Source: Deltaproteobacteria bacterium (lineage in GTDB: Bacteria > Myxococcota > Kuafuiibacteriia > Kuafuiibacteriales > Kuafuiibacteriaceae). Taken from it: a stretch of 64,000 bases of DNA. Each line of letters opens with the position of its first letter. Position 1 is the stretch's first letter. The DNA is taken from the NCBI GenBank assembly GCA_040218735.1, contig JAVJQW010000017.1, positions 1 through 64,000 of the forward strand, in the 5' to 3' direction. Made by a program: the position numbers and the translations under genes. A model generated the notes under the pieces. The model made no database searches and was not told the DNA's origin. It saw only the letters and a list, made by a program, of their open reading frames with translations. Below are positions 37,944-54,278 of this stretch, piece by piece.

Positions 37944-38953
37944 AGGCCGCGGTCGTCGGCGCCGGTTACTGGGGTCCGAACCTCATCCGCAACCTCCTGT
38001 CGACGCGACGCCTCGACAACGTCGTGGTCTGCGACATGGACGAGGCGCGCCTCGACAACGTGAAGCGTCGCTTCCCGTCGGTCGAGACGACGCGCGACTT
38101 CGACGCGGTCCTCGGCGACGAAGCCATCGAGGCGGTGCTCCTCGCGACGCCGATCTCCACGCACGGTCCGCTCGGCGTGCGCGCGATCGACGCGGGCAAA
38201 CACGTCTTCATCGAGAAGCCGCTCGCGTCGTCGGTGGAGGACGCGAACCAGCTCATCGAGGCGGCGAAGGCGAAGAGCCGCGTGCTGATGGTCGGACACA
38301 CGTTCGAGTACTCGCCGCCGGTGCTGCGCACGAAGCAGATCATCGACAAGGGTGAGCTCGGCGACATCTTCTTCATCTCGGTGATGCGCGTGAACCTGGG
38401 CCTGCACCAGCGCGACGTCTCCGTGATCTGGGACCTCGTTCCGCACGACTTCTCGATCCTGTTCTACTGGCTCGGCGAGTCGCCGTCGTTCATCTCGGCG
38501 TTCGGCCGCGACTGCGTGCAGACCGGCATCCCGGACGTCGCGTTCCTGAACCTGCGCTTCCCGAGCGGCGTCATCGCGAACATCGAGGTCGCGTGGCTCG
38601 CCCCGTCGAAGCTGCGTCGCACGGCGGTCGTCGGTCAGCGCAAGATGCTGGTGTACGACGACACCGAGAACATCGAGAAGGTGAAGATCTACGACCAGGG
38701 CGTCGACTTCCAGGACCCGGAGACGTTCGGCGAGTTCAACCTCTCCTACCGCACGGGTGACATCGTCAGCCCGAAGCTCCCCTCCGCGGAGCCGCTCGCG
38801 AAGGAGATGGAGCACTTCCTCGACTGCATCCAGACCGGCGAGACACCGCGCACGGACGGCATGTCCGGGCTGCGCGTGGTGGAGGCGCTGGAGGCGGCCG
38901 AGAAGTCGCTCGTTACGGGCAAGCCGGTGGAGCTCCCGGGGCGCACGTGGTGA
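37940..38953 (+). CDS. Second Gfo/Idh/MocA oxidoreductase
   Basis: VGAGYWGPN, FIEKP, LMVGHTF, DLVPHD; ATGA overlap with the DegT gene. Confidence 0.93.
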   Translation: MKAAVVGAGYWGPNLIRNLLSTRRLDNVVVCDMDEARLDNVKRRFPSVETTRDFDAVLGDEAIEAVLLATPISTHGPLGVRAIDAGKHVFIEKPLASSVEDANQLIEAAKAKSRVLMVGHTFEYSPPVLRTKQIIDKGELGDIFFISVMRVNLGLHQRDVSVIWDLVPHDFSILFYWLGESPSFISAFGRDCVQTGIPDVAFLNLRFPSGVIANIEVAWLAPSKLRRTAVVGQRKMLVYDDTENIEKVKIYDQGVDFQDPETFGEFNLSYRTGDIVSPKLPSAEPLAKEMEHFLDCIQTGETPRTDGMSGLRVVEALEAAEKSLVTGKPVELPGRTW

Positions 38954-40122
38954 CGCGCTCGGCGCACTACGAGCTCTGGGGCCTCGACCCCACCGTCACG
39001 TTCCTCAACCACGGCTCCTTCGGCAGCGTGCCGAAGGTGATTCGCGAAGCGCAAGCCGACTTGCACCGGCGCGCCGACCGCGAGCCGGTGGACTTCTTCG
39101 TGCGTTACCTCCCGGACGGCTACCGTCGTTCGCGGGAGGCGCTGGGTGCGTTCGTCAACGCGGACCCGGACGACCTCGTGTTCGTCTCGAACGCGACGAG
39201 CGGCGTGAACACGGTGATGAAGTCGCTTTCGTTCGAGCCGGGCGACGAGCTACTGACGACGAGCCAGGCGTACGGGGCGTGCCGGCACACGCTGGACCAC
39301 GTCGCGGACACGACGGGGGCGAAGGTGGTGTCGGCGCAGCTGCCGTTCCCGATCTCGAACCCATCGCAGATCACCGAGGCGATCCTCGCGGCGGTCACCG
39401 ACCGCACGAAGATCGCGATGCTCGATCACATCGCGAGCCCGACGGGGTTGGTGTTCCCGATCGCCGAGATCGTGGCGGCGCTGCACGAGCGCGGCGTCGA
39501 CACGCTGGTGGACGGCGCGCACTCGGTCGGGCAGGTGCCGCTGGATCTCGAAGCGATCGGCGCAGCGTACTTCACGACGAACGCCCACAAGTGGCTGTGC
39601 ACACCGCGCGGCGCGGCGATCCTGCACGTCCGCAAGGACCGGCAGGACCGCATCGTCCCGCTCGTGACGAGCCACGCGTACCACGCGAAACAAGATCGCT
39701 TCCGCGCGCAGTTCGACTGGACCGGCACCGACGACCCCACCGCGCACCTCGTGATCCCGGAGGCGATCTCGTACTTGGGAGGCCTCCTCGAAGGCGGCTG
39801 GCCCGCGCTCTACGCGGCGATCCACGATCGCGCGATGGAGGGTCGCCGCACGATCCTCGAGCGCCTCGGCCTCGAGTCCCCGTCGCCCGACGCCATGCAC
39901 GGCTCGCTCGCGCCCATCCTGCTCCCGGACGGTGACGGCGAGGTCGACTGGATCCTCGACCCCCTGAGCCGTGAGCTCTGGGACGACCACCGCATCGAGG
40001 TCCCGGTGTTCCCGTTCCCCAAGGCCCCGAAGCGGATGCTGCGCGTGTCGGCGCACCTGTACAACGCGCCGGAGGACTACGAGGGGTTGGCCGAGGTGTT
40101 GGCAGACCGCCTGACGAGGTAG
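38947..40122 (+). CDS. PLP-dependent class V aminotransferase fold (isopenicillin N epimerase / EgtE-like)
   Basis: FLNHGSFG, NATSG, DHIASPT, DGAH, NAHKWLCTP, GTDD, RVSAHLYN. Confidence 0.9.
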   Translation: MVTRSAHYELWGLDPTVTFLNHGSFGSVPKVIREAQADLHRRADREPVDFFVRYLPDGYRRSREALGAFVNADPDDLVFVSNATSGVNTVMKSLSFEPGDELLTTSQAYGACRHTLDHVADTTGAKVVSAQLPFPISNPSQITEAILAAVTDRTKIAMLDHIASPTGLVFPIAEIVAALHERGVDTLVDGAHSVGQVPLDLEAIGAAYFTTNAHKWLCTPRGAAILHVRKDRQDRIVPLVTSHAYHAKQDRFRAQFDWTGTDDPTAHLVIPEAISYLGGLLEGGWPALYAAIHDRAMEGRRTILERLGLESPSPDAMHGSLAPILLPDGDGEVDWILDPLSRELWDDHRIEVPVFPFPKAPKRMLRVSAHLYNAPEDYEGLAEVLADRLTR

Positions 40123-40171
40123 TCGCCCGCGGCACTCGCCGAGGACCGTAGGCGGCCGGAGATATTCAACA

Positions 40172-40825
40172 CTATGCCACGGTCCATGCACGCTCAGCGT
40201 CGGCGCCGCGGAAGACCCCGCTAATCATGTTGGTCTCGAGAAGCTTGCTTGCATCGAATCGAGTGACGCCGACGAGTGAGATTCCCGGTCGATGGTTCAC
40301 GTGCGTTCTTCCAAAACATATGGCGCACGCCCCCAGGGTAGCCAGACGAGCAGCCACCCGCTCGTCGAGCACCATCCGCTCTCCAGGAACGGCACGTGGC
40401 CTTCTCTCCTCGAGGCTGCGATCAATAGGCAACCATTCGGTGGACCCGGCGAGGAGAACCTCGGGCGGGACCGCCGGGATCCCGGCGGACTTCGGAAAGG
40501 GCCATACGTCGTCGTACGCAACAGGTTTGGAGGCCGAGATGAATTCCGACGAGTCATTCCGTAGAGTCCATCCCGATATTGTAAGTCTATTCTCGAGGAG
40601 CCTCGACTGCGGCTCTCCAATTCGAGTCCGAGATTTCGACAACATCCACAGTCCATTGAATTCGAATCGCGCCATCAAGCGGACCAGAAGCACACACACA
40701 GGGTGGTCCTCGGGTAGGCCTCGAGGCCCCTCGGCAAAACGCGCTCCTGTCCAAACAAAAGAATGCCTGAACAGTTCAGTGTGCTCCGCAAGTGGCTCAT
40801 CGAGACCTATCGAGAACATGTTCAA
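40172..40825 (-). CDS. Candidate immunity protein for the Rhs toxin
   Basis: Immediately downstream of the Rhs stop; AGGAG RBS overlaps that stop; visibly lower GC. Start is TTG 40825 or ATG 40819. Confidence 0.7.
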   Translation of the reverse strand: MNMFSIGLDEPLAEHTELFRHSFVWTGARFAEGPRGLPEDHPVCVLLVRLMARFEFNGLWMLSKSRTRIGEPQSRLLENRLTISGWTLRNDSSEFISASKPVAYDDVWPFPKSAGIPAVPPEVLLAGSTEWLPIDRSLEERRPRAVPGERMVLDERVAARLATLGACAICFGRTHVNHRPGISLVGVTRFDASKLLETNMISGVFRGADAERAWTVA

Positions 40826-40832
40826 TCTACTC

Positions 40833-43800
40833 CTATCTGTTGGTCAGCGGGTCATGTGTGGTCGGATAAACATGGTGGCGAGTCGGCTTACCAGGAATAT
40901 CTACTCCATAGTGGGGAGGAATCGATGTTCCGTTCGGGAATTTATGGCCAAACTCGTCAAAATGTGCCCCGATGCCCTCCGACGATACCGGATCCCATTC
41001 CAACCTCTCACCCGGCGCACCTGTTGGTGATCGAGATCCAGGTCGAGACGGAACGGACCGAGCTGGGGGTGTGCCGGCCGGGATACCAGCTTGCCGGAGG
41101 GCTGCGCGACGAGCGGCACTCTCCGACGCATGCTCGATAATGATGGTCCCATCGGGGCAAGCGTTGTGGGCCCGCACCGAAGCTTCTCCGACAAGGTACT
41201 CGTGGTCTCCTTCTACCTCCAAGTTATAGACCCGGTGAGCGCCTCGAATCCGCTCCAGCGATTCGATCGCTACCGCGCCCTCGATGGTCTGGAGGCGCTC
41301 GCCGACCTGAAGGTTCCGAACGTGAACCCAAGCTCTCCGATCGAGCGAGTAGAGTGGATGCGACCCGGTCAGCGAGAGGGGCGTTCGGTGTCCGACGACC
41401 CCCAACACGTAGACGTCTTCGCTATCGCGGCTGATCGTCGCTAGGACCACACGCCCATCCTCAGCAGGCTGCCTCGGAGCTTCACGAACCGCGGTAACGA
41501 TCCCCTCGCCCGCCACTCCGAGCTCCTCGATCTCGAGAACGGCGGAGTCCCCGGCCGATTGAACAGCGCGCGCCTCGAACCAGTCGGTGGGCCGAAGGAC
41601 GTCGACGACGATCACGCCACGCTGTCCGGCGAACTCGATGGTCGCGACCGACCAGGTCTCGTCGACCTTCGATTCGGACGATCCGCCGTAGGTCGCGACA
41701 CGATCGCCCACGCGGATTTCTTCGATGGGGACTCGCCCCTCTGCGGTGGCCACCATCGTGCCCGCCACGAAGCACCCATCTCGAAGTTTCGACGCGATCC
41801 TGCGGAGGGCTGCGGAGCCGCGCCGCGCCAGGGACGTGAGACCGCGGATGGCGGTGGCGAGCTCGATCGTCTCCTTCACTCCACTCAGGACATCCGCCGC
41901 ATGTTTCCCTTGCTCGAAGCCCGTGCTGGTCTGCGCCGCCACGAGGGATGCGGCCGTCTGGTTGGTCGGGAGCAGACGCTCGAGCGTCCCTGCGTCCGGG
42001 TCCTGGTCGAGCGCTCGCGTCGGCGTGGGTACGATCGCCTGCACGATCGGCATCGCGATGGGGCCGATGGGCCCGGGCAATGTCAGGTAGGTCATCGGGT
42101 CGTGCGCGACGTGCTGCAACGCGCGGGTCACGTAACCGCCGATGAACTGCGCCGCCTCGGACGCGTGTCCCGTCATGTCGTAGGCGGCGATCGGGTTGTT
42201 CGCAGCGTAGCCGTAGAGGTTGCACTCGGCGGGGCGCGCGGCGCACGCGTCGAGCTGTTCGAAGAGCTTCGGGTCCGGCGTCCAGAACCGCCCGAGGTGC
42301 GGATCGTAGTCGCGAGATCCGAACCGAATGACGCCGAGATCGGCGTCGTAGCCGTGCTCCACGTAGTCGAACGCAGCGAAGGAGGCCGGGCGAGACGAAC
42401 GCTGCCCGTAGGCCGCCACGTCGTTCTGCACGCCAAGACGATCCGCCAGGAGACTGCCCCGCGCGTCCGTGTGCACCAGCTCGAAACGACCGTGCTCGAC
42501 GACACCGATCAGTCGACCCGCGAGCCGCACCGGCTCGACGAACGTCGCGCCGTCGAGGTGACCGCCGAACAGATAGGCGGCCTCCGGGACGCCGTTGCGT
42601 GTCTTGAGGATCCGCTCCCCATTCTCGTCGTACTCGAAGCGGAGGATGTCGGCGCCGCCCCCTACCCGCGGGACCACGGCGCGCTCCACGTGTCCGTGCG
42701 GCCCGTAGGACAGCGTGATGCCATCGCGCTCGATGATCCGACCCGACGCGTCGAACCGGTACGTCGAGCCACCGGCCTGGAGCGTCGAGCCCTGCCGCGT
42801 CAGGACGCGTCGTCCGGCGGCGTCCTCGAGCACATCGATGAGGCCCGTCTCGTCGTAGTGGTAGCGCTCGGGCGCCCCGGCACCGTTCACCTCCTCGAGG
42901 AACCCTCGCGCGTCGTACCGGTAGTCGAGCACGCGCCGATCCGTGCCGACGGTGGTGACTTCTTCGCGAACGTGACCTCGATCGTCGACGTACCAGCCGA
43001 CGCCCGACACCTGGGCGCCGGCGTCGAGCCAGAAGCCGTTCGGTTCCCGTGTCGTCGCGTCGAAGCTGAAGACGAGATCACGGCCCGCGCCGAAGTCCGC
43101 GCGGTACATCCGTCCTTCCGCGTCGTAGTACAGCTCGAATGCGCGTGCGCCGCCGATGTCCACCGCGGCCAATCGCCCGTATGCGTCGTACGTGTAGGCC
43201 TGGTCGACCTTCTCCAGACCGTACCCGGTCGCCGTGTCGCGAACCGTGCGCGTGGTCGTCGCGAGGTCGCCGTTTTCGTAATACGTCGAGACGACCTCGA
43301 CCTCGCGCCAGCCCCCCACGGTCATGGACACGAGGCGGGTGGTGCCGTCGGGGTTGCGGAGCGTCTTCCGCTGGAAGCCGGTGCCGTGCACCTCCGTGAC
43401 GTAGCCACGTTGCCCGGGGGCGCCGGTGCTCCCGCCGTCGTAGATGAATTCGTACGGGACCCTCGCTCCGGTCGCGACGTCGACGTGTTGCTCGCGGACG
43501 ACTCGACCGATCGCATCGACCGTGTAGTCGACGGTCCGTGCGAGCGTCCCCGTCGCGTCGAGGTGGCGTTTGTGCGCGAGGATGCCCGTCGTGGCGTCGT
43601 AGACGTAGGACACGCCCGCGACGCCGACGCGTTTGACCTCTTTGCCGCGACCGTAGTCGTCGTAGCGAATCCTGTGGTCGGTCCCGTCCGCGAGCGTCAC
43701 GCCGACGATACGACCCTGAGCGTCGTACGAGGCACGTGTGTCGTTGCCGAGCTCGTCCGTCCGAATCAGGACCCTGCCCGCCGCGTCCTCGACGATCTTG

Positions 43801-46800
43801 CTGATGTGCGATCCGTTCTCTTCAAACGATCGGACGAGCCTGTCACCAACGATCGCGAGGCTGGTCTCGATGCGTTCGACGTTCGCCCCCTGGGTCACGA
43901 CGGAGTGTTCGGCGGCGTGTCCGAAGCCGGCGGTGCGCGTCGATGCCACGAGCTCCGCTCCGACGTAGAGGTCGCCGTAGAGCAGCGTGCTCAGGCCACC
44001 CGGCGCGATCGGATCACGCACCAACGTCTTGTCGATTCCGAGCGTCCGATCGCGTTGACTCAGCCCGCTGACGGCCCAGCCCTGCGGAATCTCGGTGACG
44101 TCGACCAAAGACGCCCCGTCGGCGGCGATGAGCTGCGCCGTTCGTTGCGTGATGCCCGCCGTGCCATCGACGAGGCGCTCGATCTCCACGACGCCGACCG
44201 AGGTCGCCGTGGGCCACGTGTAGGCGAAGCGCTCGGTCGGTGTCGCTTGCGTCGATCCACCGAAGTCGTCCCACGACCGCTCCAGACGCTCGTACCCGTC
44301 GTACGCGAAGTGCGTCGTGAACCGAGCTCCCGAGCCACGGTCGATTTCTATCGCCCGGATGTTGGTGGTCACCGGATCGAAGTCGACGATGTTCGTCGCA
44401 ACCCCGTCGGGCGCCGTCGTCCCCACGACGATTTCCGTCGCCGGGTCGTAGTCGATCTTGGTCGTCCCGCGACCTGGCGCGGAGACCGACTTCACGCGAT
44501 CGAGTGCGTCGTAGCTGATGTCCTGCTGGACGAGTGGCCCCTGCGACCCCGTGCGTTCGACACGCGTCACGAGCCCGCGAGCGTTGCGCGTGATCGTCTG
44601 CGACTCCGTAAAGTCGAGCGACGCGTCCGCGTGGCTACCCGTCAGGCTGACCCGACTCGGCATGCAGTGGAGCGCATCGACGAGCCCGACCGCCATCGCC
44701 AGATCTCGCGTCTCGGTGAGCGTCCCGTGACGGCTGGTGCTCGAGACGTCGACGGGACACCACTCGCGCTGGTGCGCCATGACCTCTGAGGTCTCCTCGA
44801 CGACCGCTCCGCTCGCGACGTCTTCCCACCCCGTGCGCGTGAGCCGAGAGCGTCGCCAACGAACCCCGAGGTGCGAACGAAGATCGTGTTCGTGCGCCGT
44901 GTAGCGCACCAGATCCGGCGTGCTGGGATCGAAGGTCTGCGACCGGACGACGATCCCCGGGACGTCGTCCTCGTGCACGTACGACAGCTCCTCCGTGCTC
45001 CTCGGTCCGACCGCTCGCACGAGGTCGAAGCCGATGACCTGACGTCCGACGCTGTGGGCGACGGGGCCGTCGTACACGTACTGATGCGCTACGGCGTCGT
45101 ACCCTCCGGACTCCGAGACGACCTCCGTCAGGACGACGCGCCGTCGCGGCACCTCGGGGTGGGCGTGCGCGTAGCCGTAGCCGAAGCGCATGCGGTTGCC
45201 GCGGCCGTCGTCGGCTTGGACCATCAGCCCGGTCGACGCGCTGGACAGGGGCAGCGCCCACGCCTGCCCGCCGGAGACGTACACGAGCTCGACCTCGCCC
45301 GACCCACGAATATCGGCAACGACCGGGTTACTCGTGTTGATCCCCACACCATTCAGCGCCGGGATGACGCGCTCAAGGAAGTGCTCGCCGAAGTTGATGA
45401 AGAGGAAGGCCGCCGAGCTGTGCCATAGGAGGACATCCGTCAGTCCATCGCGGTTCGCATCGAGGAAACTCGCGCCGAACCCCGACAGACCACCGAGCGG
45501 CGTACCGGAGCGCGTGACGAACGAGAGCGGGACGCCCTGCGGTTCGAACTGAAGGTTGCCCCGCCCGTACCAGACGACGAGCGCACCGGGGTGGCGGCCC
45601 ACGAGATCGACGAGACCGTCCCCGTTGATGTCATGGATCCAAGCGGTGTCGGGGTCGAACGCCGGCGAGAGCGCGGTCGTCACGCCGTCCTCGAAGCTCC
45701 ACCCTCCGGTCTCGCTCTGGTTGTGCAGCACCTCGACGCTGCCGTACGTCAGACGGACGAAGTCCGGCTGTCGATCGCGGTCGACGTCGACGAGGCGCGT
45801 AGTCGCATCGAGCTCCCAGACCCCAGGCACGTCGGCCTCGTGCAGCGGGGTTCCGTCCCGATCACACAGGAGGATCGTCGTCACATTCGTCGACGGGATC
45901 CGTTGCGCGTAGACCACCTGCGGCTCCGTCTCGGATGCACGCATGCGAGCGAGTACCCGCGGAGTGTTGTAGAGGCTGTCGTCCGGGCGACAACGCTGGT
46001 CCGCCTGGGCGTTCGGCGCGAGGGGCTCGCTCCTCCAGCCGTCGTCTGTCTGGTGAACCAGCGCAAACGCGAAGTGGTGCTCGAAGTCGACCCGTCCGTC
46101 CTCCTCGACGTCGAGCGTCGCTGAATAGGTCGGCTGCAGCGCTGCCCCTCCCGCCGCCGCGAGATAGCCCTCGATGCCATCCGCCCGTACGAACTCAGCG
46201 TCGTCGATCGTCTGGTCGCCGAAGTCATACGTGAACGTCCGCGGCGGCTCTCCCGCTCCGCCCGCGTAGGTCTTGGTGATCGACTCCAGATAGAACGCGC
46301 GCCCCATCGGGCTGTGGACGTAGTCGAGCGCGTGCGTCCAACGCAGCGCGTACGCTCCCGTCTGCGCGTGTCTGCTGTAGGCCTCGACACGCGCGACACG
46401 CCGGTCGAGCAACGTCGCTTCGCCCGACGCGTAGGACACGTACGGGACCGGGATCGTCTCGTAGATCAGTCGAACCTGCTGCTCGTCCTGGTGCCCCGGG
46501 CCACCGTACGTGACCGTCGACAGGAATCGGGCGCCCGAGGGGGCGACCGTCCAGGCGTAATCGGCGCGATCGCCGCGGTACCCTTCGACCCGCGTGAGGT
46601 ACCACGCGTACGTCCCGAGGGTGCGGTCGAGGCGTTCGAAGAACTCGTAGCGCGTTCCATCGCCCGACTCGACGACCCAGCCCGCCGACGTCTGCGTGAA
46701 ACGCAACCGGTCGCGGAAACCGAGCGTGTACCAGTAGCCGTCGCTCCCCGGCTTCAACTGACCCCACGGCGAAGTGACCTCGTCGGTCGCGTAGTCCAGG

Positions 46801-47147
46801 TCGCCGACGAACCGATAGCGACGGATCGACAGCTCGTTGGACCAGCCCATCCCCCACTCCGACTGTCCAGACTCCGGGGAGTACGACGGTGCGAACATCA
46901 GGTCCGGACCGCCGCGCTCTTCGGGGTGGTCGATACCGCTCGGCAGCGACTGAACACCGCGCGCCAGGTCGCCCGGGCCGAAGGCCTGCTTACTCAGGGC
47001 ACCGGCGATCGAAGCGATCGACGGACCGTTGATCGTCGGTGTCTGAACCAACGCGTCGTTGAAGGACTGCGCCGAAGCCTCGTGGCTCCACAAGGACGCA
47101 GCGGTACACGTCAGCGCGACGAGCGCGCCTCTACGAATGGTCTTCAT
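40833..47147 (-). CDS. Secreted SpvB/FG-GAP (TcB-like)-YD/Rhs (TcC-like) fusion with HINT domain and C-terminal HNH-like toxin
   Basis: Signal peptide (ASA|Q); SpvB-like SYSPESGQSEWGMGW and AWYLTRVE; FG-GAP DVDRDRQPD, DINGDGLVD, DANRDGLTD; YD repeats; Rhs core RDYDPHLGRFWTPDP...NLYGYAANNPIAAYDMTG; HINT CFVAGT...VYNLEVEGDHEYLV...HN; His-rich tip. Confidence 0.92.
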   Translation of the reverse strand: MKTIRRGALVALTCTAASLWSHEASAQSFNDALVQTPTINGPSIASIAGALSKQAFGPGDLARGVQSLPSGIDHPEERGGPDLMFAPSYSPESGQSEWGMGWSNELSIRRYRFVGDLDYATDEVTSPWGQLKPGSDGYWYTLGFRDRLRFTQTSAGWVVESGDGTRYEFFERLDRTLGTYAWYLTRVEGYRGDRADYAWTVAPSGARFLSTVTYGGPGHQDEQQVRLIYETIPVPYVSYASGEATLLDRRVARVEAYSRHAQTGAYALRWTHALDYVHSPMGRAFYLESITKTYAGGAGEPPRTFTYDFGDQTIDDAEFVRADGIEGYLAAAGGAALQPTYSATLDVEEDGRVDFEHHFAFALVHQTDDGWRSEPLAPNAQADQRCRPDDSLYNTPRVLARMRASETEPQVVYAQRIPSTNVTTILLCDRDGTPLHEADVPGVWELDATTRLVDVDRDRQPDFVRLTYGSVEVLHNQSETGGWSFEDGVTTALSPAFDPDTAWIHDINGDGLVDLVGRHPGALVVWYGRGNLQFEPQGVPLSFVTRSGTPLGGLSGFGASFLDANRDGLTDVLLWHSSAAFLFINFGEHFLERVIPALNGVGINTSNPVVADIRGSGEVELVYVSGGQAWALPLSSASTGLMVQADDGRGNRMRFGYGYAHAHPEVPRRRVVLTEVVSESGGYDAVAHQYVYDGPVAHSVGRQVIGFDLVRAVGPRSTEELSYVHEDDVPGIVVRSQTFDPSTPDLVRYTAHEHDLRSHLGVRWRRSRLTRTGWEDVASGAVVEETSEVMAHQREWCPVDVSSTSRHGTLTETRDLAMAVGLVDALHCMPSRVSLTGSHADASLDFTESQTITRNARGLVTRVERTGSQGPLVQQDISYDALDRVKSVSAPGRGTTKIDYDPATEIVVGTTAPDGVATNIVDFDPVTTNIRAIEIDRGSGARFTTHFAYDGYERLERSWDDFGGSTQATPTERFAYTWPTATSVGVVEIERLVDGTAGITQRTAQLIAADGASLVDVTEIPQGWAVSGLSQRDRTLGIDKTLVRDPIAPGGLSTLLYGDLYVGAELVASTRTAGFGHAAEHSVVTQGANVERIETSLAIVGDRLVRSFEENGSHISKIVEDAAGRVLIRTDELGNDTRASYDAQGRIVGVTLADGTDHRIRYDDYGRGKEVKRVGVAGVSYVYDATTGILAHKRHLDATGTLARTVDYTVDAIGRVVREQHVDVATGARVPYEFIYDGGSTGAPGQRGYVTEVHGTGFQRKTLRNPDGTTRLVSMTVGGWREVEVVSTYYENGDLATTTRTVRDTATGYGLEKVDQAYTYDAYGRLAAVDIGGARAFELYYDAEGRMYRADFGAGRDLVFSFDATTREPNGFWLDAGAQVSGVGWYVDDRGHVREEVTTVGTDRRVLDYRYDARGFLEEVNGAGAPERYHYDETGLIDVLEDAAGRRVLTRQGSTLQAGGSTYRFDASGRIIERDGITLSYGPHGHVERAVVPRVGGGADILRFEYDENGERILKTRNGVPEAAYLFGGHLDGATFVEPVRLAGRLIGVVEHGRFELVHTDARGSLLADRLGVQNDVAAYGQRSSRPASFAAFDYVEHGYDADLGVIRFGSRDYDPHLGRFWTPDPKLFEQLDACAARPAECNLYGYAANNPIAAYDMTGHASEAAQFIGGYVTRALQHVAHDPMTYLTLPGPIGPIAMPIVQAIVPTPTRALDQDPDAGTLERLLPTNQTAASLVAAQTSTGFEQGKHAADVLSGVKETIELATAIRGLTSLARRGSAALRRIASKLRDGCFVAGTMVATAEGRVPIEEIRVGDRVATYGGSSESKVDETWSVATIEFAGQRGVIVVDVLRPTDWFEARAVQSAGDSAVLEIEELGVAGEGIVTAVREAPRQPAEDGRVVLATISRDSEDVYVLGVVGHRTPLSLTGSHPLYSLDRRAWVHVRNLQVGERLQTIEGAVAIESLERIRGAHRVYNLEVEGDHEYLVGEASVRAHNACPDGTIIIEHASESAARRAALRQAGIPAGTPPARSVPSRPGSRSPTGAPGERLEWDPVSSEGIGAHFDEFGHKFPNGTSIPPHYGVDIPGKPTRHHVYPTTHDPLTNR

Positions 47148-47162
47148 GTCGGACTCCTCGAA

Positions 47163-50100
47163 TCAGGGGACGCAGCGGTCGATCCACGTGAGTGGCGTGC
47201 TGGAGGTGGTGGTGCTCTCCAACTCCATGACCATCACGACCTCGGTCGCGTCGAGGAGGTCGGCGTGGTCGACTGGGTTGAACAGGAACTCGAACTCGTT
47301 GAAGGGCGACAGGCCGATGACGTTCGTTCGCGGGGCGCCCTGCGGCGTGTAGAGCGCTGCATTCACCACGGCCAAGGGGTTGTCAAAGTTGGTGTAGACG
47401 TACGGCGCTTCGAATGAGAGCCACTGCGCGTTGTCCATCGTGTAGGTGACCGGCCCCCGTTCGCTCGCGAACGTCTGCGTGAAGCCGGCGTAGCCGATCA
47501 GCTTCGTCTGCAACCTATCGAGCGAATGGACGTCCGCGTTCTCCCCGTCTCCTTGTCGAATGACCGCGAGTCCGAGATGTCGAAGGACGGGGAGCTCCTC
47601 GTAACAGGACAGCGTCGCCGTACCGCCGAGCTCGTAGATGTCGCGCGGCGAAACCGAGATGATCGCCTCCGCGCTCTGCTCGATACTCGTCCACAGCGCC
47701 GCCGCGCGCGCCCGATCCACCCGACGGTGCTCCGTCAGCACGCCGGCGCCGAAGTCACCGGGTTCGAAGGCGGTGAAGCCACCCAAGTCGATCGTGTCGT
47801 CTCCGTCGGGGCGCGGGAACGAGAGCGCGACGAGCCGACGAGCCGTTTCGGTGTCGCGATTACGGAGGTCGACGTGCGCGAGCTCATCGCCGATCTTTCG
47901 AGCGAGCGCGACCATGTTGGACGTAACATCACGCATGGGCGCGTTCGGCGACATGTCCAGCAGCGCCAGCACGTCGGGATCGGCGGCGAGCGCGGCAAGG
48001 ACTTCGTGGTACCAGAGGTCCAACACGGGGAGCACGAAGGTCCGCATGTCGTCACCGAGGCGACTCGCAGTGGCGAACACGTAGTCCGCGTCGAGGTTCC
48101 GCAGTCCCCACGTCGGGACGAGCTGCAGGAGGACGTCCGCGGACTGCGCGTGCTGGAGCTCCGCGAGCAGCGCGTTGTGCTCGCGAATCAGGAGCTCGAT
48201 CTCACGATCGATCGAGGCGATACGCACGGCACGCTCGAGGCGGACGAGCTCACGGGAGAGGAAGGCTTCGTACATCGTCCGCAGCGGCGTCGGGTACTCG
48301 GACACGTCGAGCACCGGCCCTCCCACGCCGATGGATTGAATGGCGTAGAGGTTGGCGTCGTTGCGAATGGACGTCAGCTCCGACGGGAGCACTTCCCCTC
48401 GACGAACGAGCTCCGTCTCCCGATCTCGCACGTACTCGAGGACCGCGCTGATCCGGCCGAGGAGCTGTTCGGAGACCGTCTCGGCGCTCTGCAGCACGGC
48501 GGCCCGCACGGTGATTCGGTTCGTGCTGTCCGCCACGCGGCAGCGCCAATCATTCACGACGAAGTACAGGTCGGCGTCGTCGCCGACCGTAATGGTGGTG
48601 TGCGGCGATCGAAGCACGTGAATGTCGCGAACGTCGGAGAGCAACGTCGCTCCGCGTGGCATCTCTACGATGACCAGGCTCCCGACCGGAGCGCTCGAGA
48701 TCGGCATGACGGAGAGGAACAGACCGCTCTCGAAGGAAGCTGCGGTTCGACTCTCGAAGCCAGCGCTATCCGTATGACTCCTCGACTCGGTGATGCTGTT
48801 GTCATTGTAGACGCAGGCCTTCGCCGAGACCCCGAACCAGGCGGTGTCGTTCCCGATGCAGATCTCTCCTCGGAGGCCGATGGTCGCAGACATGGAACGC
48901 GACCTCGCCGCGGTCCCCGCGAGGTAGCGGCTGCCGGTCCACGCGACGGAGTAGCCCTCCGGTCCGACCAGCACACCGTGGCTGTCGACGCTCATCGGGA
49001 GGTAGGTGTCCGGTCTCAGCAAGCGGCGGCGGTTCAGCTCACAAGCGGCCGCGTAGCGCCCCTCGGTCCCGACCGAGAGCACCTGGCCCCGCTCGATGGG
49101 GACCATCGGCCCCGTGCGGAGGGTCGCAATCGAGGTTGCGCCGAGGTCGAGCTCCGAGGCGGAGGCACCGCTGACGTCGAAGGGTGCCAACGACGTGACG
49201 TTGAAGAACTGCCCGCCGTCGTACACCCCCGACGTTCGCTCGAACTGCGAGACGAGCTCGGAGTACGTATCGAGCTCCGCAACGGCTCGTTTGTGCCGCG
49301 TGCTTCGTTCGATGAGGAGATCGATGTCGTCGGCAATGCGACGCCGTCGATCGTCGAGCCGCGCGAGGGTTGCTTCGTTCTGCAGCTCGGCGAGGATGCC
49401 GTGGACGATGCCGACGAGATCGCGGTCGTACGTGGAGAGGCGACCTTCGAGCTCCGCGCGCTTGCTCGCGATGTGGCTCACGATGTCGTCACGTTTGGCG
49501 GCTTCGGCGCTCGTGACGAGCGAGCGATCCGATGCGGTCTCGAAGTAACCGCGGGCCCGGTAGCTCGCAGTTCGCTGGCGCGCCAGGCCCACGCTCTGGA
49601 AGTACCGATGCACCGACACCGGGAGCTGGGTGGAGTCGAGCGCGTCGAACTGGGAGGGGTCGTAACCCGCGAAGACGTCGGAGATCGCACGGACGTTCCA
49701 GGTGTGGGCCGGTCGCACGGCCGCAAACGCCTCGGTCCAGCCGTCGAGATCCACGGAGACCTCCGCGATCTCGCGAGCGAGGAGATCGTCGTGCGTCATC
49801 GCGCCGACCAGTGCCCACGTAGCGGAGACGGGCGTCTCGAGATCGTTCGTGCGGCACTGCGCGAAGCCACACGCAATGTCGTGTCCATGGCCGAGGGTGT
49901 CGAGGCGATCCGTGAGCGCGCCCAGGATCTCGCCGCTGATGGCGAGCAGCGGCCGACCGCGGGCCGAGGGTACGCCGTTGTCGCGCACGGACGTGTGAGC
50001 GGCGATGAACACGTCGCGGTCGATGTCGAGACTCGCCGCGACGTTCCCCTCCAGAGCGCTCGCGAAGACGTCGATGTCCACGTTCTCGCGCTCGACGTTC

Positions 50101-51425
50101 TGCAACCGCTCCTCGAGGGGGCGGTTGGACTCTACCGTCGAAGCCGCGAGGAGCGCGGCCAAGATGTCACCGTTGAGCGATCGGGCCTGTGCGATCTCTC
50201 GCCAGAAGGAGGTCATCACGCGCTCGAGGTGTGCGTCCAACTCGGGGTCGGCTTCGATGACCGAGAGGTCCTCGAACCACATCGACAGCAGGTCGAGCGC
50301 CGTCGCGACCCGGTGAACCCGGGTCTCGGGATCCGCCGTCCGCTGAAGCGAGTCGCCCATGTGACCGAGGATCTTCTCGAGGAGCGTGTCGTTGAGCGCG
50401 AGCGCTTCCTCCACCTCGCTCTCCAGCGTGCACTCCGAGCGGGCGTGAGCGAGCCTCGTCAGGAGATTCGTGCACCGGCCGTACGCGTGACCGTAGTGCG
50501 CATCGAGCAGGCCACCCGAGACGTGCTCTCCCGTCAGGCGAGCACAGAAATCGAAGCGCCAGTGGTGTTGTTCCATCGGCGCGCACGAGGGCTCGAGCGT
50601 CGAGCGCGGGCCGCAGTCGGGGCGGTTCTCGGGGCGGCCCTCGTACAGGCCAAGCGCGGCGGACCGCTGGCTCGACGTGAAGGCCTCGCCCTTCACCTCG
50701 TAGAGGAGCTTCAGGTTCCGCTCGAGCTTCAACACCGTGGCGCCTTCCTCGCGCAGCGCGATCCGATGTCCGTCGATCATGCAGCCGGCTTTCGCTCGCA
50801 CCTCCTCGTCGGTGTCGACGGGGAGCTGGTCGCAGCTGAGACACGTGAGCTCGGTGTCGGGTGGCAGCTCCCCATAGTCCGTAGCCGGGAGCGGAGTGAA
50901 GGGCGGACGGCGCGCGGCGCGGACCTCCGCTTCGGTCATGCCGAGGTAGCGGTAGGTCACCTCCGTGTCGGTGGAACGGCGGAAGCCCTGGTGGACCGTG
51001 CACCTCCGCTGGACGGAGTCCTCCGTGGATCCGCGGTACCAGCCGGTGCAGTTGAGGTGATGTCGCGTGAAGATCGCTGCGTCACCCGCGGCGACGAGGT
51101 CGTTGCGGAGGCCCTCGACGAGTTGATCGACGGCGTCCTGGACGTCGGCCTCATCCGATGGCAAGCAACCGAACTCTTCCCAGCACCACCCGGTCAGCTC
51201 CATCTGCGTTTCGCGGTCCGCGACCTCCTCCGGCGAAGCCCAGTCTTCGTAGCGCCATGCGGTCGAACACGCCTGCGACGGCAACACACGATCCGGATCG
51301 CAGGTCTCGTACTCGACGATGACTTCCGTCGCGGCTTCGTGCGTTGGCGGATCGACCTCGCCTTGGCATGCAAGGGAGATTGCGCCCACGATGAAGACGG
51401 AGATCGTCAGCTTGAATTCGCTCAT
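47163..51425 (-). CDS. Large (~1420 aa) lipoprotein with coiled coils; possible TcA-like partner of the Rhs protein
   Basis: Lipobox SLAC at residue 20 from ATG 51425; Cys-rich N-terminal region; two heptad-rich segments; C-terminal GLSPFNEF...ATEVVMVMELE; 15 nt upstream of the Rhs ATG with a GAGGAG RBS between. Confidence 0.8.
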   Translation of the reverse strand: MSEFKLTISVFIVGAISLACQGEVDPPTHEAATEVIVEYETCDPDRVLPSQACSTAWRYEDWASPEEVADRETQMELTGWCWEEFGCLPSDEADVQDAVDQLVEGLRNDLVAAGDAAIFTRHHLNCTGWYRGSTEDSVQRRCTVHQGFRRSTDTEVTYRYLGMTEAEVRAARRPPFTPLPATDYGELPPDTELTCLSCDQLPVDTDEEVRAKAGCMIDGHRIALREEGATVLKLERNLKLLYEVKGEAFTSSQRSAALGLYEGRPENRPDCGPRSTLEPSCAPMEQHHWRFDFCARLTGEHVSGGLLDAHYGHAYGRCTNLLTRLAHARSECTLESEVEEALALNDTLLEKILGHMGDSLQRTADPETRVHRVATALDLLSMWFEDLSVIEADPELDAHLERVMTSFWREIAQARSLNGDILAALLAASTVESNRPLEERLQNVERENVDIDVFASALEGNVAASLDIDRDVFIAAHTSVRDNGVPSARGRPLLAISGEILGALTDRLDTLGHGHDIACGFAQCRTNDLETPVSATWALVGAMTHDDLLAREIAEVSVDLDGWTEAFAAVRPAHTWNVRAISDVFAGYDPSQFDALDSTQLPVSVHRYFQSVGLARQRTASYRARGYFETASDRSLVTSAEAAKRDDIVSHIASKRAELEGRLSTYDRDLVGIVHGILAELQNEATLARLDDRRRRIADDIDLLIERSTRHKRAVAELDTYSELVSQFERTSGVYDGGQFFNVTSLAPFDVSGASASELDLGATSIATLRTGPMVPIERGQVLSVGTEGRYAAACELNRRRLLRPDTYLPMSVDSHGVLVGPEGYSVAWTGSRYLAGTAARSRSMSATIGLRGEICIGNDTAWFGVSAKACVYNDNSITESRSHTDSAGFESRTAASFESGLFLSVMPISSAPVGSLVIVEMPRGATLLSDVRDIHVLRSPHTTITVGDDADLYFVVNDWRCRVADSTNRITVRAAVLQSAETVSEQLLGRISAVLEYVRDRETELVRRGEVLPSELTSIRNDANLYAIQSIGVGGPVLDVSEYPTPLRTMYEAFLSRELVRLERAVRIASIDREIELLIREHNALLAELQHAQSADVLLQLVPTWGLRNLDADYVFATASRLGDDMRTFVLPVLDLWYHEVLAALAADPDVLALLDMSPNAPMRDVTSNMVALARKIGDELAHVDLRNRDTETARRLVALSFPRPDGDDTIDLGGFTAFEPGDFGAGVLTEHRRVDRARAAALWTSIEQSAEAIISVSPRDIYELGGTATLSCYEELPVLRHLGLAVIRQGDGENADVHSLDRLQTKLIGYAGFTQTFASERGPVTYTMDNAQWLSFEAPYVYTNFDNPLAVVNAALYTPQGAPRTNVIGLSPFNEFEFLFNPVDHADLLDATEVVMVMELESTTTSSTPLTWIDRCVP

Positions 51426-51658
51426 GTCGACGTACGAGTGCACGGGCCGGACCAACCATCATTCGAAGGGTGCACGGCGCTGAGACGACGACGTTCGTTT
51501 CACTGGAACGGTGGAGTCGCGTCGCTCCGACGCGCACGAACAGGCAGCTAGGAGCGCACGCGAGCGCGATCGGTGTTTTGTGACAACGACCCGAGCCTGC
51601 GTCACACCGGCGGATGGGCCGCACGCGACGAGTCAGCCGCAAGCTACGTTGACAGCAA

Positions 51659-52159
51659 TCACTCCCAGAACGGGGAGTCGGCGCCGATCAGGCGCAGCGG
51701 ATACCGCCCCACCCGGCTCTTCGCGTGCGGCGCCTCGAGCGTCACGATCACCGTGACCTCGTCGGGCGCCTCCTCGCTCATGCGGAACGTGTAGCCGAGC
51801 GAGTCTTTGAAGGCGGGCGCCGTGACCTGCTCCTCGTAGAGGACGGAGACGTCGCCGCCCGTGTCGAGCTCGATGCGGAGCCAGCGCGGGCCGGTGCCCT
51901 CGGAGGTGAACTGGAACGCGAGGTCCTGGGGCCGGGGGAGTGAGACGCGGCGGTCGGCGGGGAGCTTCTTCGGCCCGTCCGGCGTCTGGCCGTAGACCTC
52001 GACCGTGCCGATGTCACCGGTCGCCGCCGGGACGGGCGGGCGGGCCACGAAGACGCCCAGGCCCACCAGCGCCGCGACGGCCAGCGCCGCGAAGACCCCC
52101 CAGGCAACCGCGCCCCGCACGCCCCTGGGTCTCGGATAACTGTTGTTGTTTTGCAACAC
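51659..52159 (-). CDS. Hypothetical membrane-anchored protein
   Basis: N-terminal TM helix then a beta domain; true start probably a downstream GTG near 52120. Confidence 0.7.
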   Translation of the reverse strand: MLQNNNSYPRPRGVRGAVAWGVFAALAVAALVGLGVFVARPPVPAATGDIGTVEVYGQTPDGPKKLPADRRVSLPRPQDLAFQFTSEGTGPRWLRIELDTGGDVSVLYEEQVTAPAFKDSLGYTFRMSEEAPDEVTVIVTLEAPHAKSRVGRYPLRLIGADSPFWE

Positions 52160-52241
52160 TCCGACAGCGATGCCCCGGTCACGCGGGTCTGGGTCGTGGG
52201 GCTGTCTCGTAAACTACTGAAATCACGTCTACGAAGGGAAG

Positions 52242-52287
52242 CGCCGGGGCGGTCCGACGTTTGCTCTTCGTCAGACCGGCCCCGGCG
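52242..52287 (-). terminator. Strong hairpin followed by TTCCCTTC on the minus strand
   Basis: CGCCGGGG-CGGTC-GACG pairs with CGTC-GACCG-CCCCGGCG. Confidence 0.55.
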
Positions 52288-52412
52288 TCTCGTACTCCAG
52301 CTCTTATTCGCGCTCTCTCTGTAGTTCTTGCTCTTGCGCCTGTGATGACTCTCTACGGGGCCTTTTCATTCCCTCTCCCCTCTAAAAACGCATAGAAACC
52401 ACGTCGCCCCCC

Positions 52413-54248
52413 ATGTGTGGCTTCGTCGCGCTGTTCCTTCCCGGCCGTCGACCGGTCGATCCACGCGTCCTCGACGCGATGACCGACGCGATGCGCCATC
52501 GCGGCCCGGACGGCCGCGGGGTGCACGCCGGTCCCGGCTTCGGCCTCGGGCACCGCCGCCTCGCCATCATCGACCTCGACGGCGGCGCGCAGCCTCTCCT
52601 CGGCGCCGACGACCGCGTGGCTGTCACGTTCAACGGCGAGATCTACAACTACCGCGCGCTCCGCGACGCGCTCGACGGCCCCTGGCGCACCCACTCCGAC
52701 ACCGAGGTCTTCCTGAGGACCTACGAAACCCACGGCGTCGCCGGGCTCGACCGGCTCGTCGGGATGTGGGGCGCGGCGATCTGGGACGGTCGACACGAGC
52801 GCCTCGTCGTCAGCCGCGACCGCCTCGGCATCAAGCCGGTCTACTACGTCGCCCTCCCCGGCGGCGGCTTCGCGTTCGCTTCCGAAATCCGCGCCCTCCT
52901 CGCCCACCCGGACGTCCGCGCCGAGCTCGACCCGAGCGCGCTCGACGAGCTGCTCACCTACCGCTACGTCCCCGCGCCGCAGACGATCTTCGCCGGCATC
53001 AAGAAGCTCCTCCCCGGGCACTACGCGATCGCCGACGCCAACGGGCTCGAGATCACCCGCTACTGGAACGTGCTCCCCGCGCCGCGTCCGCTCTCGGACG
53101 ATGAAGCCGAGGAGCGCTTCCTCGAAGCCTTCGACCAGTCCGTCGCCTCCCGCATGGTCGCGGACGTCCCCGTCGGCATCTTCCTCTCCGGCGGGATCGA
53201 CTCCAGCGCCGTCCTCGAAGCGATGCACCGGCGCGACGTCGCCGCGTTCACGATCGGCTTCGAGGACAACGAAGAAGACGACGAGATCGTCTACGCGAAG
53301 GAGACCGCAGCGATGTACGGCGCGCAGCACTACGCGCTGACGATCGGCCCGTCCGACTACGCCGCCTACTTCGATCGCTACGTCGAAGCCCTCGAGGAGC
53401 CGGTCCTGAACGACTCCGCGATGGCCACGAACTTCCTGTCCGGGCTCGCGCGCCAACACGTGAAGGTCGTGCTCTCCGGCCAGGGCGCCGACGAACCGCT
53501 CGCGGGGTACGACCGCTTCAAGGGCGAGCTGTTGTCCCCGCTGTTCGCCCGCGTCCCCGGCGTGGGCCACGCCGCGCCGCTCGTGGAGCGTTCGTCCGCG
53601 AGTGAGAAGGTGAAGCGTGCGTTCCGCTCCCTCACCGAGCCGGACGACGTCGCGCGCGCGCTCCGCATCTACGCGGTGTTCCAGGAGGAGGAGAAGGAAG
53701 GCCTGCTCCGCTCGCCGCGCGCCGCCGACGTCGCGTCTCCGATCCGCCGCTGGCACGCCGACGTCGGCCACCTCTCCCCCCTCGGCCGAATGCTCTACAC
53801 CGACACGCGCATGTGGCTCGTCGACGACCTGTTGATGGTCGCCGACAAACTCTCGATGGCACACGGCCTCGAGCTGCGCGTGCCGTTCCTCGACCACCGC
53901 CTCGTCGAGCTCCTCGAGACGATGCCCGACGACCAGAAGATCCGCGTGACGCGGCGGGGCATCGAGACCAAACGCGTCCACCGGCGCGCCATGGCCCGGC
54001 GGCTCCCGGACGCCATCGTGAACCGCAAGAAACGCGGCTTCACGAACCCCATGGACCGCTGGCTGCGCACCGCTCTGGCCGGGCTGGTCGAGGCGCGGCT
54101 CCTCAGCGGCGATACCCCCCTGACGGGCTGGCTCGATCCGGCCGGTATCGAGCGAATCTGGGCCGCCCACCGCGCCGGGCAGGACCGCCGGCGGCAGCTG
54201 TTCCTCCTCCTGACCCTGGACGCCTGGGCGCGGCGTTACTTGGACTGA
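52413..54248 (+). CDS. asnB: Asparagine synthase (glutamine-hydrolysing) family amidotransferase, probably glycan-modifying
   Basis: MCG start, HRGPD, HRRLAIID, FNGEIYN, SRDRLGIKP, LSGGIDSS, SGQGADE, ELRVPFLD. Confidence 0.95.
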   Translation: MCGFVALFLPGRRPVDPRVLDAMTDAMRHRGPDGRGVHAGPGFGLGHRRLAIIDLDGGAQPLLGADDRVAVTFNGEIYNYRALRDALDGPWRTHSDTEVFLRTYETHGVAGLDRLVGMWGAAIWDGRHERLVVSRDRLGIKPVYYVALPGGGFAFASEIRALLAHPDVRAELDPSALDELLTYRYVPAPQTIFAGIKKLLPGHYAIADANGLEITRYWNVLPAPRPLSDDEAEERFLEAFDQSVASRMVADVPVGIFLSGGIDSSAVLEAMHRRDVAAFTIGFEDNEEDDEIVYAKETAAMYGAQHYALTIGPSDYAAYFDRYVEALEEPVLNDSAMATNFLSGLARQHVKVVLSGQGADEPLAGYDRFKGELLSPLFARVPGVGHAAPLVERSSASEKVKRAFRSLTEPDDVARALRIYAVFQEEEKEGLLRSPRAADVASPIRRWHADVGHLSPLGRMLYTDTRMWLVDDLLMVADKLSMAHGLELRVPFLDHRLVELLETMPDDQKIRVTRRGIETKRVHRRAMARRLPDAIVNRKKRGFTNPMDRWLRTALAGLVEARLLSGDTPLTGWLDPAGIERIWAAHRAGQDRRRQLFLLLTLDAWARRYLD

Positions 54249-54278
54249 TCGGGTCGGGCCCGATATTCTCGGGATCCT

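Follow-up and report, generated by a model that had tools for sequence, protein, structure and literature searches.

A conserved lipoprotein family paired with TcB/TcC-type Rhs toxins in Myxococcota: a candidate Tc-like delivery pair with an exchangeable toxin cassette

In this study, we describe three linked genes on the minus strand of a 64,000-nucleotide stretch of myxococcotal DNA (positions 1 to 64,000 of contig JAVJQW010000017.1, our contig C23 of an 11.6-Mb genome of ~68% GC; hereafter, the window), which encode a lipoprotein of 1420 amino acids (aa), an Rhs polymorphic toxin of 2104 aa and a small open reading frame (ORF), here called ORF3. The toxin is of a known kind; what appears to be new is the partner family to which the lipoprotein belongs, its strict pairing with the toxin and the TcA-like fold predicted for its C-terminal region. 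We tentatively read the genes as a two-component antibacterial system of the Tc-like A + BC type, in which the A-like component is lipid-anchored and the tip cassette exchangeable, an interpretation to which we give a little less than an even chance.

The association between the two large genes was evaluated in 20-kb stretches around 67 places in the window's phylum (two of which, L038 and L039, overlap), fetched and searched with both proteins. By tblastn, an Rhs homolog was detected beside the lipoprotein homolog in 63/67 loci, so that the co-occurrence of lipoprotein homologs with SpvB/FG-GAP Rhs genes, on which the sequence-only reading of this DNA had staked its proposal, was borne out. 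The Rhs gene lay directly downstream on the same strand in 51/67 loci, downstream on the same strand with something between in 6/67, and in divergent orientation in 4/67; in 2/67, Rhs was present and its lipoprotein partner was visible to the profile only, being too distant for tblastn. The six interruptions consisted of an FGE-sulfatase gene (L017), GTPase-like genes (three small-genome loci) and a second lipoprotein paralog (L038/L039). No other gene flanking the pair in the window was shared across the fetched loci. Lipoprotein genes without an adjacent Rhs gene were found in 4/67 loci, two of them at contig ends (L011 and L073), one with an RCC1-repeat neighbor (L012) and one with an NB-ARC gene downstream (L028).

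Moreover, when loci were compared pairwise, identity in the lipoprotein C-terminus was correlated with identity in the Rhs N-terminus over 49 pairs (r = 0.92; 0/999 permutations as high), with the lipoprotein diverging faster (median identity of 28% for its C-terminus vs 46% for the Rhs N-terminus). Since linked genes co-diverge regardless of contact, this correlation shows inheritance as a unit and not contact. On the other hand, the genome carries a single lipoprotein gene, but its other SpvB-Rhs paralogs, which are more distant and have no lipoprotein homolog beside them, number at least five; this makes the pairing specific to one Rhs clade. In this context, it has to be asked whether the two proteins are physical partners, since the lipoprotein could instead be an adhesin of the cell surface that is co-transcribed with the toxin gene, or travel with that gene as a factor for self-protection or regulation. 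The four lone lipoprotein loci, and the co-divergence of linked genes with or without contact, would agree with such an absence of partnership. However, the adjacency survives deep divergence (the 28% median identity of the lipoprotein C-terminus) in several families of the phylum, the link is clade-specific, and the fold match described below is precisely to the partner of TcB/TcC; we therefore consider this explanation very improbable.

Several arrangements at individual loci deserve mention in their own right. At L017:3092-4825, the gene separating the lipoprotein homolog and Rhs encodes a 577-aa protein with an FGE-sulfatase domain, and one to three GTPase-like genes with MMR_HSR1, AIG1 and GBP matches separate the two in 1.7-2-Mb genomes (L070:4307-5878, L071:11391-14682, L072:5718-8532, and L074:5099-7738). 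Two tandem lipoprotein paralogs precede one Rhs gene at L038/L039 (G346 C1), whereas Rhs genes flank the lipoprotein gene on both sides at L056 (G246 C1). At L013 (G006 C1), the Rhs gene is split, with residues ~24-1188 after the lipoprotein gene and residues ~1160-1660 inverted upstream of it, which looks like a rearrangement within the gene. At L012:1-2406 (G054 C17), the divergent neighbor of the lone lipoprotein homolog encodes an RCC1-repeat β-propeller protein.

The second line of evidence is structural. Residues of the lipoprotein are numbered here as in P0001, which starts 10 codons upstream of the ATG, at TTG 51455. The AlphaFold2 (AF2) model of residues 300-1430, built from a 54-sequence alignment, reached a predicted local distance difference test (pLDDT) score of 84.3 and starts with a helical domain and a 76-residue helix, continues with a β-domain that has a long, low-confidence hairpin and with more long helices, and ends in a C-terminal β-domain. 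When this model was compared with the Protein Data Bank (PDB) by Foldseek, TcA subunits came out on top with weak matches (E 0.02-0.1). The last 452 aa were also modeled separately (pLDDT 83.9), and here ranks 1-18 were all TcA chains, with E-values from 3.2e-4 to 7.6e-3, probabilities of 0.63-0.98, and 450-520 aligned columns. The matched chains were YenA2, TcdA1, XptA2, TcdA4, and TcaA-TcaB, from Yersinia, Photorhabdus, Xenorhabdus, and Morganella. Botulinum neurotoxin (ranks 19 and 21) and picornavirus jelly-roll proteins followed at E > 0.01, and no secretion channel was present among the 50 matches listed. The earlier suggestion that the lipoprotein is a TcA analogue thus found partial backing in the predicted fold of the C-terminal 452 aa, for which TcA chains were the only good matches but superposed poorly, and none in sequence or profile similarity, as detailed further below.

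With regard to the family itself, the lipoprotein had no match in Pfam (Pfam-A, E ≤ 0.1) or NCBIfam, and its profile gave zero matches to PDB sequences, TcA included; a search of the ESM Atlas was uninformative (best scores 0.76). A word-index search returned two relatives only, and a full profile search against 1.84 billion representatives (50% clustering) was needed to reveal a family of 589 proteins at E ≤ 1e-3 (408 at E ≤ 1e-30). Among the matches listed, members are ~900-2050 aa long, mostly 1200-1900, and span the whole 1117-position core. Where proteins in ten looked-up clusters were named, the public names were 'hypothetical protein', 'Uncharacterized protein' or 'Lipoprotein', and the named organisms belonged to Hyalangium, Myxococcus, Sandaracinus, and Melittangium. 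The family appears to be new, without a previous name or a Pfam/NCBIfam model. Within the phylum, it was found in 54/401 sampled genomes (E ≤ 1e-10), with carriers concentrated in a family of 9-13-Mb genomes (43/172) and in a family of 1.7-2-Mb genomes (5/21).

A lipobox following a hydrophobic stretch was recognized by script in 39/63 full-length homolog ORFs and by eye, from printed N-termini, in 15 more; homologs of the small-genome lineage (1.7-2 Mb) have ordinary signal peptides without a lipobox. Furthermore, among 28 longer members scanned, additional modules were identified as PA14 (6), GLEYA (4), FG-GAP (4), DUF346 (3), and ricin-type lectin, legume lectin, and discoidin (1 each), located N-terminal to the conserved core in 5/5 proteins with positions checked. 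Such variation of binding modules around a constant core would suit a component that binds the target.

Two other assignments were considered and rejected. A SitA-type toxin was set aside because the lipoprotein has neither a C-terminal toxin or nuclease family nor an immunity gene of its own, and a 1946-aa lipoprotein next to a paralogous Rhs gene on contig C39 was not accepted as a family member (hhalign probability, 2%). That paralog, encoded in the same genome (L093; G000 contig C39, 362000-381900), has clear Pfam SpvB and TcdB_midN matches. Ahead of it are the genes for this unrelated lipoprotein, to which Pfam assigns no family, and for a secreted PKD protein of 1297 aa, a gene set that may represent another, different set of partners.

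Within the central β-domain of the lipoprotein lies a long hairpin (P0001 ~851-897), whose alignment columns, over 54 sequences, are hydrophobic and polar by turns; it has Ser/Thr-rich flanks, two near-invariant cysteines (866 and 881), and an aromatic-Gly tip. Amphipathic alternation of this kind is seen in the hairpins that β-barrel pore formers insert into membranes; neither Pfam nor Foldseek gave a sequence or fold match of the lipoprotein to β-barrel pore-forming toxins. This hairpin also bears on a producer-side explanation, in which the Rhs protein, after Sec export, would have to cross the outer membrane of the producer or be fixed to it; lipoprotein oligomers would form a hairpin β-barrel there, as lipoprotein secretion channels do, and export or hold the Rhs protein, with no role in target entry. 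The conserved and amphipathic hairpin, the lipid anchor, Sec-like signals on both proteins, the strict pairing and co-divergence, and the lack of a dedicated outer-membrane secretion gene conserved beside the pair are all compatible with such an export or anchoring factor. Nevertheless, relatives carry lectin, PA14, and GLEYA modules, which are better suited to attachment to a foreign surface than to export, Foldseek returned the toxin translocator TcA and no secretion channel among the 50 matches listed, and the small-genome homologs have no lipobox. In addition, a folded cocoon is wide relative to known hairpin-built channels. On balance, we find a purely producer-side role unlikely, while granting it a serious minority share of probability.

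The toxin begins with a Sec-like N-terminus (basic residues, a hydrophobic run, and A-S-A followed by Q, read by eye), and a crude script found a similar signal-like N-terminus in 33/56 Rhs homologs. Searches of Pfam and NCBIfam identified FG-GAP_3 at residues 506-573 (7.8e-13), TcdB_toxin_midN at 610-721 (25.3 bits vs a cut-off of 24.8), RHS_repeat and YD_repeat_2x, Rhs_assc_core at 1579-1661 (2.8e-13), Hint_2 at 1792-1823, and PT-HINT at 1901-1988, and the PDB sequences matched were a bacterial intein-like domain, an Rhs protein, and teneurins. Of the architecture first proposed, the FG-GAP propeller, YD shell, Rhs core, HINT domain, and tip were all recovered. The SpvB-like region was not recognized by Pfam, whose SpvB model had no match to residues 1-316 even at E ≤ 10; it was recovered by a profile of 37 homologous Rhs N-termini, which matched residues 38-103 of the TcB subunit YenB (E = 1.3e-10). 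PF03534 itself is present in three relatives with a tip of the same kind. As anticipated, Pfam found no PAAR or VgrG domain in the Rhs protein; it found no clade domain either, and cargo of a type VI secretion system (T6SS) was rejected on the grounds of the signal peptide-like N-terminus and the missing PAAR domain. The Rhs N-terminus had no tblastn match among plasmids. Judging from these sequence features, the protein is predicted to be a TcB/TcC-type cocoon, that is, a 'TcdB/TcaC' polymorphic toxin of a class already described.

The 3′ end of the module behaves as an exchangeable toxin/immunity-type cassette made up of HINT, tip, and ORF3. Alignments to the Rhs proteins of most other loci end at about residue 1660, where the Rhs core ends; a few reach HINT and none covers the tip, in agreement with the variable tips expected by the sequence-only reading. 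The HINT domain ends with His-Asn at 1994-1995 and is followed by a tip of ~109 aa, for which Pfam and NCBIfam gave no family match; the tip is 58-64% identical to those of three large SpvB/FG-GAP/RHS proteins with otherwise unrelated bodies, and a pattern search with it found relatives in 0/600 pattern matches. Among the four metagenome runs compared, long contigs were read in run X2, and one of them (17,751 nt) matched the window at 38500-40095 with 18 differences and at 41857-52500 with 70 differences (~99% identical), while 1510 other letters replaced 40096-41856. This replacement explains the local dip in GC (0.53 at 40500-40999 vs ~0.66-0.70 in the surroundings) and is the behavior of toxin-immunity cassettes. 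Near-identical DNA of 44000-51425 was observed in sponge, aquaculture, biofloc, biofilm, and seawater metagenomes from seven studies.

The nature of the target has to be discussed in light of this cassette. The same A + BC architecture could be aimed at eukaryotes, be they grazers or hosts (sponges, for instance), with ORF3 as an unrelated hitch-hiker. In favor of this alternative are the TcA-like C-terminal fold, the glycan-binding modules of relatives, an ORF3 that has neither an immunity family nor relatives, and the near-identical DNA in sponge, aquaculture, and biofloc metagenomes. Conversely, joint replacement of the tip and the downstream ORF between near-identical strains, with a local GC dip, is the toxin-immunity pattern. 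HINT-released tips on signal-peptide SpvB-RHS proteins are, in the relevant parts of the article, classed with polymorphic, mostly interbacterial toxins (PMC3482391), and myxobacterial Rhs proteins with signal peptides act in kin discrimination, according to the sections devoted to them (PMC10433427). A eukaryotic target is thus, in our view, improbable.

Returning to the proposed Tc-like antibacterial system, a number of observations weigh against it. On the structural side, superpositions on TcA are weak (TM-score 0.20-0.28; root-mean-square deviation 21-28 Å), and the resemblance may come from nothing more specific than long helices combined with a β-sandwich; low TM-scores are, however, what would be expected if the long helices were hinged differently in a monomer model. 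With 1420 aa, the lipoprotein is also smaller than the matched TcA chains (~1,900-2,500 residues, or split in two), and its long helices, read by eye in the sequence, have no strongly hydrophobic, transmembrane-like stretch. Regarding sequence, none of the Pfam TcA-type domain models matched the lipoprotein. The similarity to the TcB-binding domain of TcA (PF18276, TcA_TcB_BD) that had been proposed was not found, given that a search of the whole genome with this model came back empty at E ≤ 10, and no canonical TcA was found there either; VRP1, neuraminidase-like, and TcA_RBD are further signature families of TcA. Likewise, the lipoprotein alignment (47 sequences) compared by hhalign with ten TcA C-termini from plasmid records reached a probability of 1.3%, and that with SepA alone reached 0.05%. 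Because these sequence tests were negative, the region is called TcA-like in fold, and the protein is not filed as a member of the TcA family.

On the genetic side, the lone lipoprotein loci indicate that pairing is not obligate, and the small-genome lineage combines non-lipidated homologs with intervening GTPase genes. Two adjacent histidines conserved in the three tip relatives are His-Phe in the window protein, so that activity of its tip is not assured. ORF3 had no Pfam or NCBIfam family, matched only itself among 5.8 billion clusters, and gave one weak match in 401 genomes. Consequently, the immunity-like character attributed to this orphan draws on three features, namely its position, its low GC, and its replacement together with the tip. 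A complex prediction of the lipoprotein C-terminal domain with the Rhs propeller scored 0.07 against a mark of 0.32, which speaks neither for nor against binding.

If the favored two-component system operates, the Rhs protein would be exported by Sec and fold into a TcB/TcC-type cocoon formed by the SpvB-like N-terminus, the FG-GAP propeller, and the YD shell, which would enclose its own C-terminus, with the Rhs core protease and then HINT cutting out the ~109-aa toxin. The lipoprotein would be tethered by its lipid to the outer membrane, with its variable N-terminal region binding the target and its TcA-like C-terminal helices and β-domain docking the propeller of the cocoon. The conserved amphipathic β-hairpin and/or the long helices may then insert into the target envelope and pass the toxin. 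ORF3 would be the cognate immunity protein protecting siblings, and the targets would accordingly be related bacteria. In this scheme, the localization and surface exposure of the lipoprotein, its oligomerization, docking, injection or pore formation, toxicity, and immunity are what we infer. We also contemplate a bolder version, possible and yet doubtful, in which this family, having diverged independently, would constitute a second class of 'A' translocator of the Tc type. Its members would be exported by Sec, held by their lipid at the surface of the producer, and carry a fused BC cocoon, and a disulfide-stapled amphipathic β-hairpin, and not only an α-helical channel, would breach the envelope of a neighboring cell.

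The features of the module are given in Table 1. The linkage described at the outset was confirmed in all its elements: the three minus-strand ORFs, the low-GC ORF among them, are separated by gaps of 15 and 7 nucleotides (nt), the second being 13 nt when ORF3 starts from the ATG of the public 215-aa call, and purine-rich ribosome-binding sites, GAGGAG and AGGAG, stand ahead of gene starts. The length of ~1420 aa for the lipoprotein also held, from the ATG at 51425 and with a hydrophobic stretch ending in S-L-A-C; the full ORF spans 47163-51455, and the public gene call of 1420 aa matches the ATG start. A promoter and terminator scan detected zero promoter-like sites and two terminator-like sites within the Rhs gene, fewer than in shuffled sequence, and is uninformative for a high-GC organism. 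Upstream of the lipoprotein gene, the minus strand carries a 166-aa ORF with a hydrophobic N-terminus (51659-52159) and a 1098-aa ORF (52353-55649), which have no Pfam family and are not conserved at other lipoprotein loci.

Table 1. Coordinates of the lipoprotein, Rhs toxin, and ORF3 module in the window (lipoprotein residues as in P0001 unless stated).
Feature	Position	Strand	Details
Lipoprotein gene	47163..51425	-	1420 aa from ATG at 51425
Signal peptide and lipobox-like S-L-A-C	51366..51425	-	By eye; Cys is residue 20 from ATG
Cys-rich, weakly conserved N-terminal region	50559..51365	-	Residues ~31-299, outside AF2 model
Helical domain with 76-residue helix at its end	49206..50558	-	Residues ~300-750; AF2, pLDDT 84.3
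Central β-domain	48486..49205	-	Residues ~750-990; AF2
Long β-hairpin	48765..48905	-	Residues ~851-897; alignment and AF2 (confidence <50)
C-terminal 452 aa: long helices (one of 93 residues), then β-domain	47166..48521	-	AF2, Foldseek
C-terminal β-domain	47166..47843	-	Residues ~1205-1430; candidate docking domain for Rhs propeller (putative role)
Rhs polymorphic toxin gene	40833..47147	-	2104 aa; predicted fused TcB/TcC-type cocoon
Putative Sec-type signal peptide	47070..47147	-	Residues 1-26, A-S-A before Q27; by eye
TcB/SpvB-like N-terminal region	46158..47045	-	Residues ~35-330; profile match to YenB
FG-GAP β-propeller and TcdB middle/N region	44928..46160	-	Residues ~330-740
YD/RHS repeat shell	42414..44927	-	Pfam, NCBIfam, and PDB sequence matches
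Rhs-associated core	42165..42413	-	Residues 1579-1661
HINT autoprotease domain	41163..41774	-	Residues ~1792-1995, His-Asn at end
Toxin tip	40836..41162	-	~109 aa, no family match; 58-64% identity to tips of three SpvB-RHS proteins
ORF3, immunity-like orphan	40172..40825	-	215-217 aa
Exchangeable cassette: pre-HINT linker, HINT, tip, ORF3, and 3′ spacer	40096..41856	.	Metagenome contig, run X2

Compared with known systems, the closest likeness is to the Tc (ABC) toxins of Photorhabdus, Xenorhabdus, Yersinia, and Serratia, with which the window genes share the TcB-like N-terminus, FG-GAP propeller, RHS shell, and Rhs core, as well as a large partner gene immediately upstream, as in the sepA-sepB-sepC order on pADAP. 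The C-terminal helices and β-domain of that partner give TcA as the only strong fold matches, and the variable binding modules of lipoprotein relatives are a further likeness. In contrast to TcA, the partner here is a 1420-aa lipoprotein with a Sec signal, without detectable sequence relation and with a conserved β-hairpin. TcA assembles into a pentamer, and the TcB propeller docks on its central α-helical channel. Moreover, B and C are fused here and preceded by a putative signal peptide, with HINT ahead of the tip and an immunity-like gene after it. For the Tc of Yersinia entomophaga, release by cell lysis is described in the abstract of the article (PMC10847048).

The sequence-only reading knew of no characterized system with this combination, which does not hold for the toxin, whose architecture is exactly that given in Table 1 of Zhang et al. 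(2012) for the 'TcdB/TcaC' class (signal peptide, SpvB, integrin-like β-propeller, RHS, and HINT), with lineages including δ-proteobacteria (PMC3482391). In the passages of that article considered here, however, the associated component listed is 'TcdB' only, and a conserved partner lipoprotein is not described (PMC3482391); the partner appears to be new. In the same phylum, kin discrimination in Myxococcus xanthus is mediated, independently of the T6SS, by large Rhs proteins with signal peptides, whose delivery route is stated to be unknown (PMC10433427). These Rhs4 and Rhs5 proteins resemble what is predicted for the window Rhs in being Sec-dependent and T6SS-independent with polymorphic C-terminal toxins, and differ in their size of ~4000 aa and their location on Mx-alpha prophages, as reported in the same part (PMC10433427). 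Two Rhs relatives of the ~3200-aa type, in loci of Polyangiaceae metagenome-assembled genomes, had no lipoprotein homolog within 8 kb and did not share the tip.

T6SS Rhs effectors also have an RHS cocoon with an Rhs core, and their polymorphic tips are followed by immunity genes, as the window tip is by an immunity-like ORF; the window Rhs differs in its signal peptide-like N-terminus and in having no PAAR, with a propeller and TcB-like N-terminus in place of the clade/PAAR domain. Toxins of the anthrax protective antigen type have a Ser/Thr-flanked amphipathic hairpin with a hydrophobic tip and a separate adjoining cargo, as seen here, with PA14 present in some lipoprotein relatives; this likeness is a pattern read from the alignment, with no sequence or fold match. 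Full-text literature searches yielded no article on a conserved lipoprotein partner or a TcA-like protein for these toxins; supplements, which lie outside this search, may list such neighborhoods. The available part of the text of Song et al. (2021) does not contain 'Myxo', 'Deltaproteobacteria' or 'signal peptide' (PMC7861908).

In brief, a family of 589 representatives without a Pfam or NCBIfam model merits definition regardless of its mechanism. How Sec-exported Rhs toxins of Gram-negative bacteria gain access to their targets is an open question, for which the pair offers a concrete candidate: the partner gene is conserved, co-diverges with the toxin gene, and encodes a protein with a TcA-like C-terminal fold, whose relatives carry binding modules. 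If the bolder version above is true, T6SS-independent Rhs toxins with signal peptides would have in this lipoprotein their missing means of delivery in myxobacteria, and injection of the Tc kind would serve bacterial warfare besides insect killing. The pair would also carry the principle of an A translocator with a BC cocoon over to interbacterial competition, and to an A component that is lipid-anchored, much smaller, and without recognizable sequence similarity.

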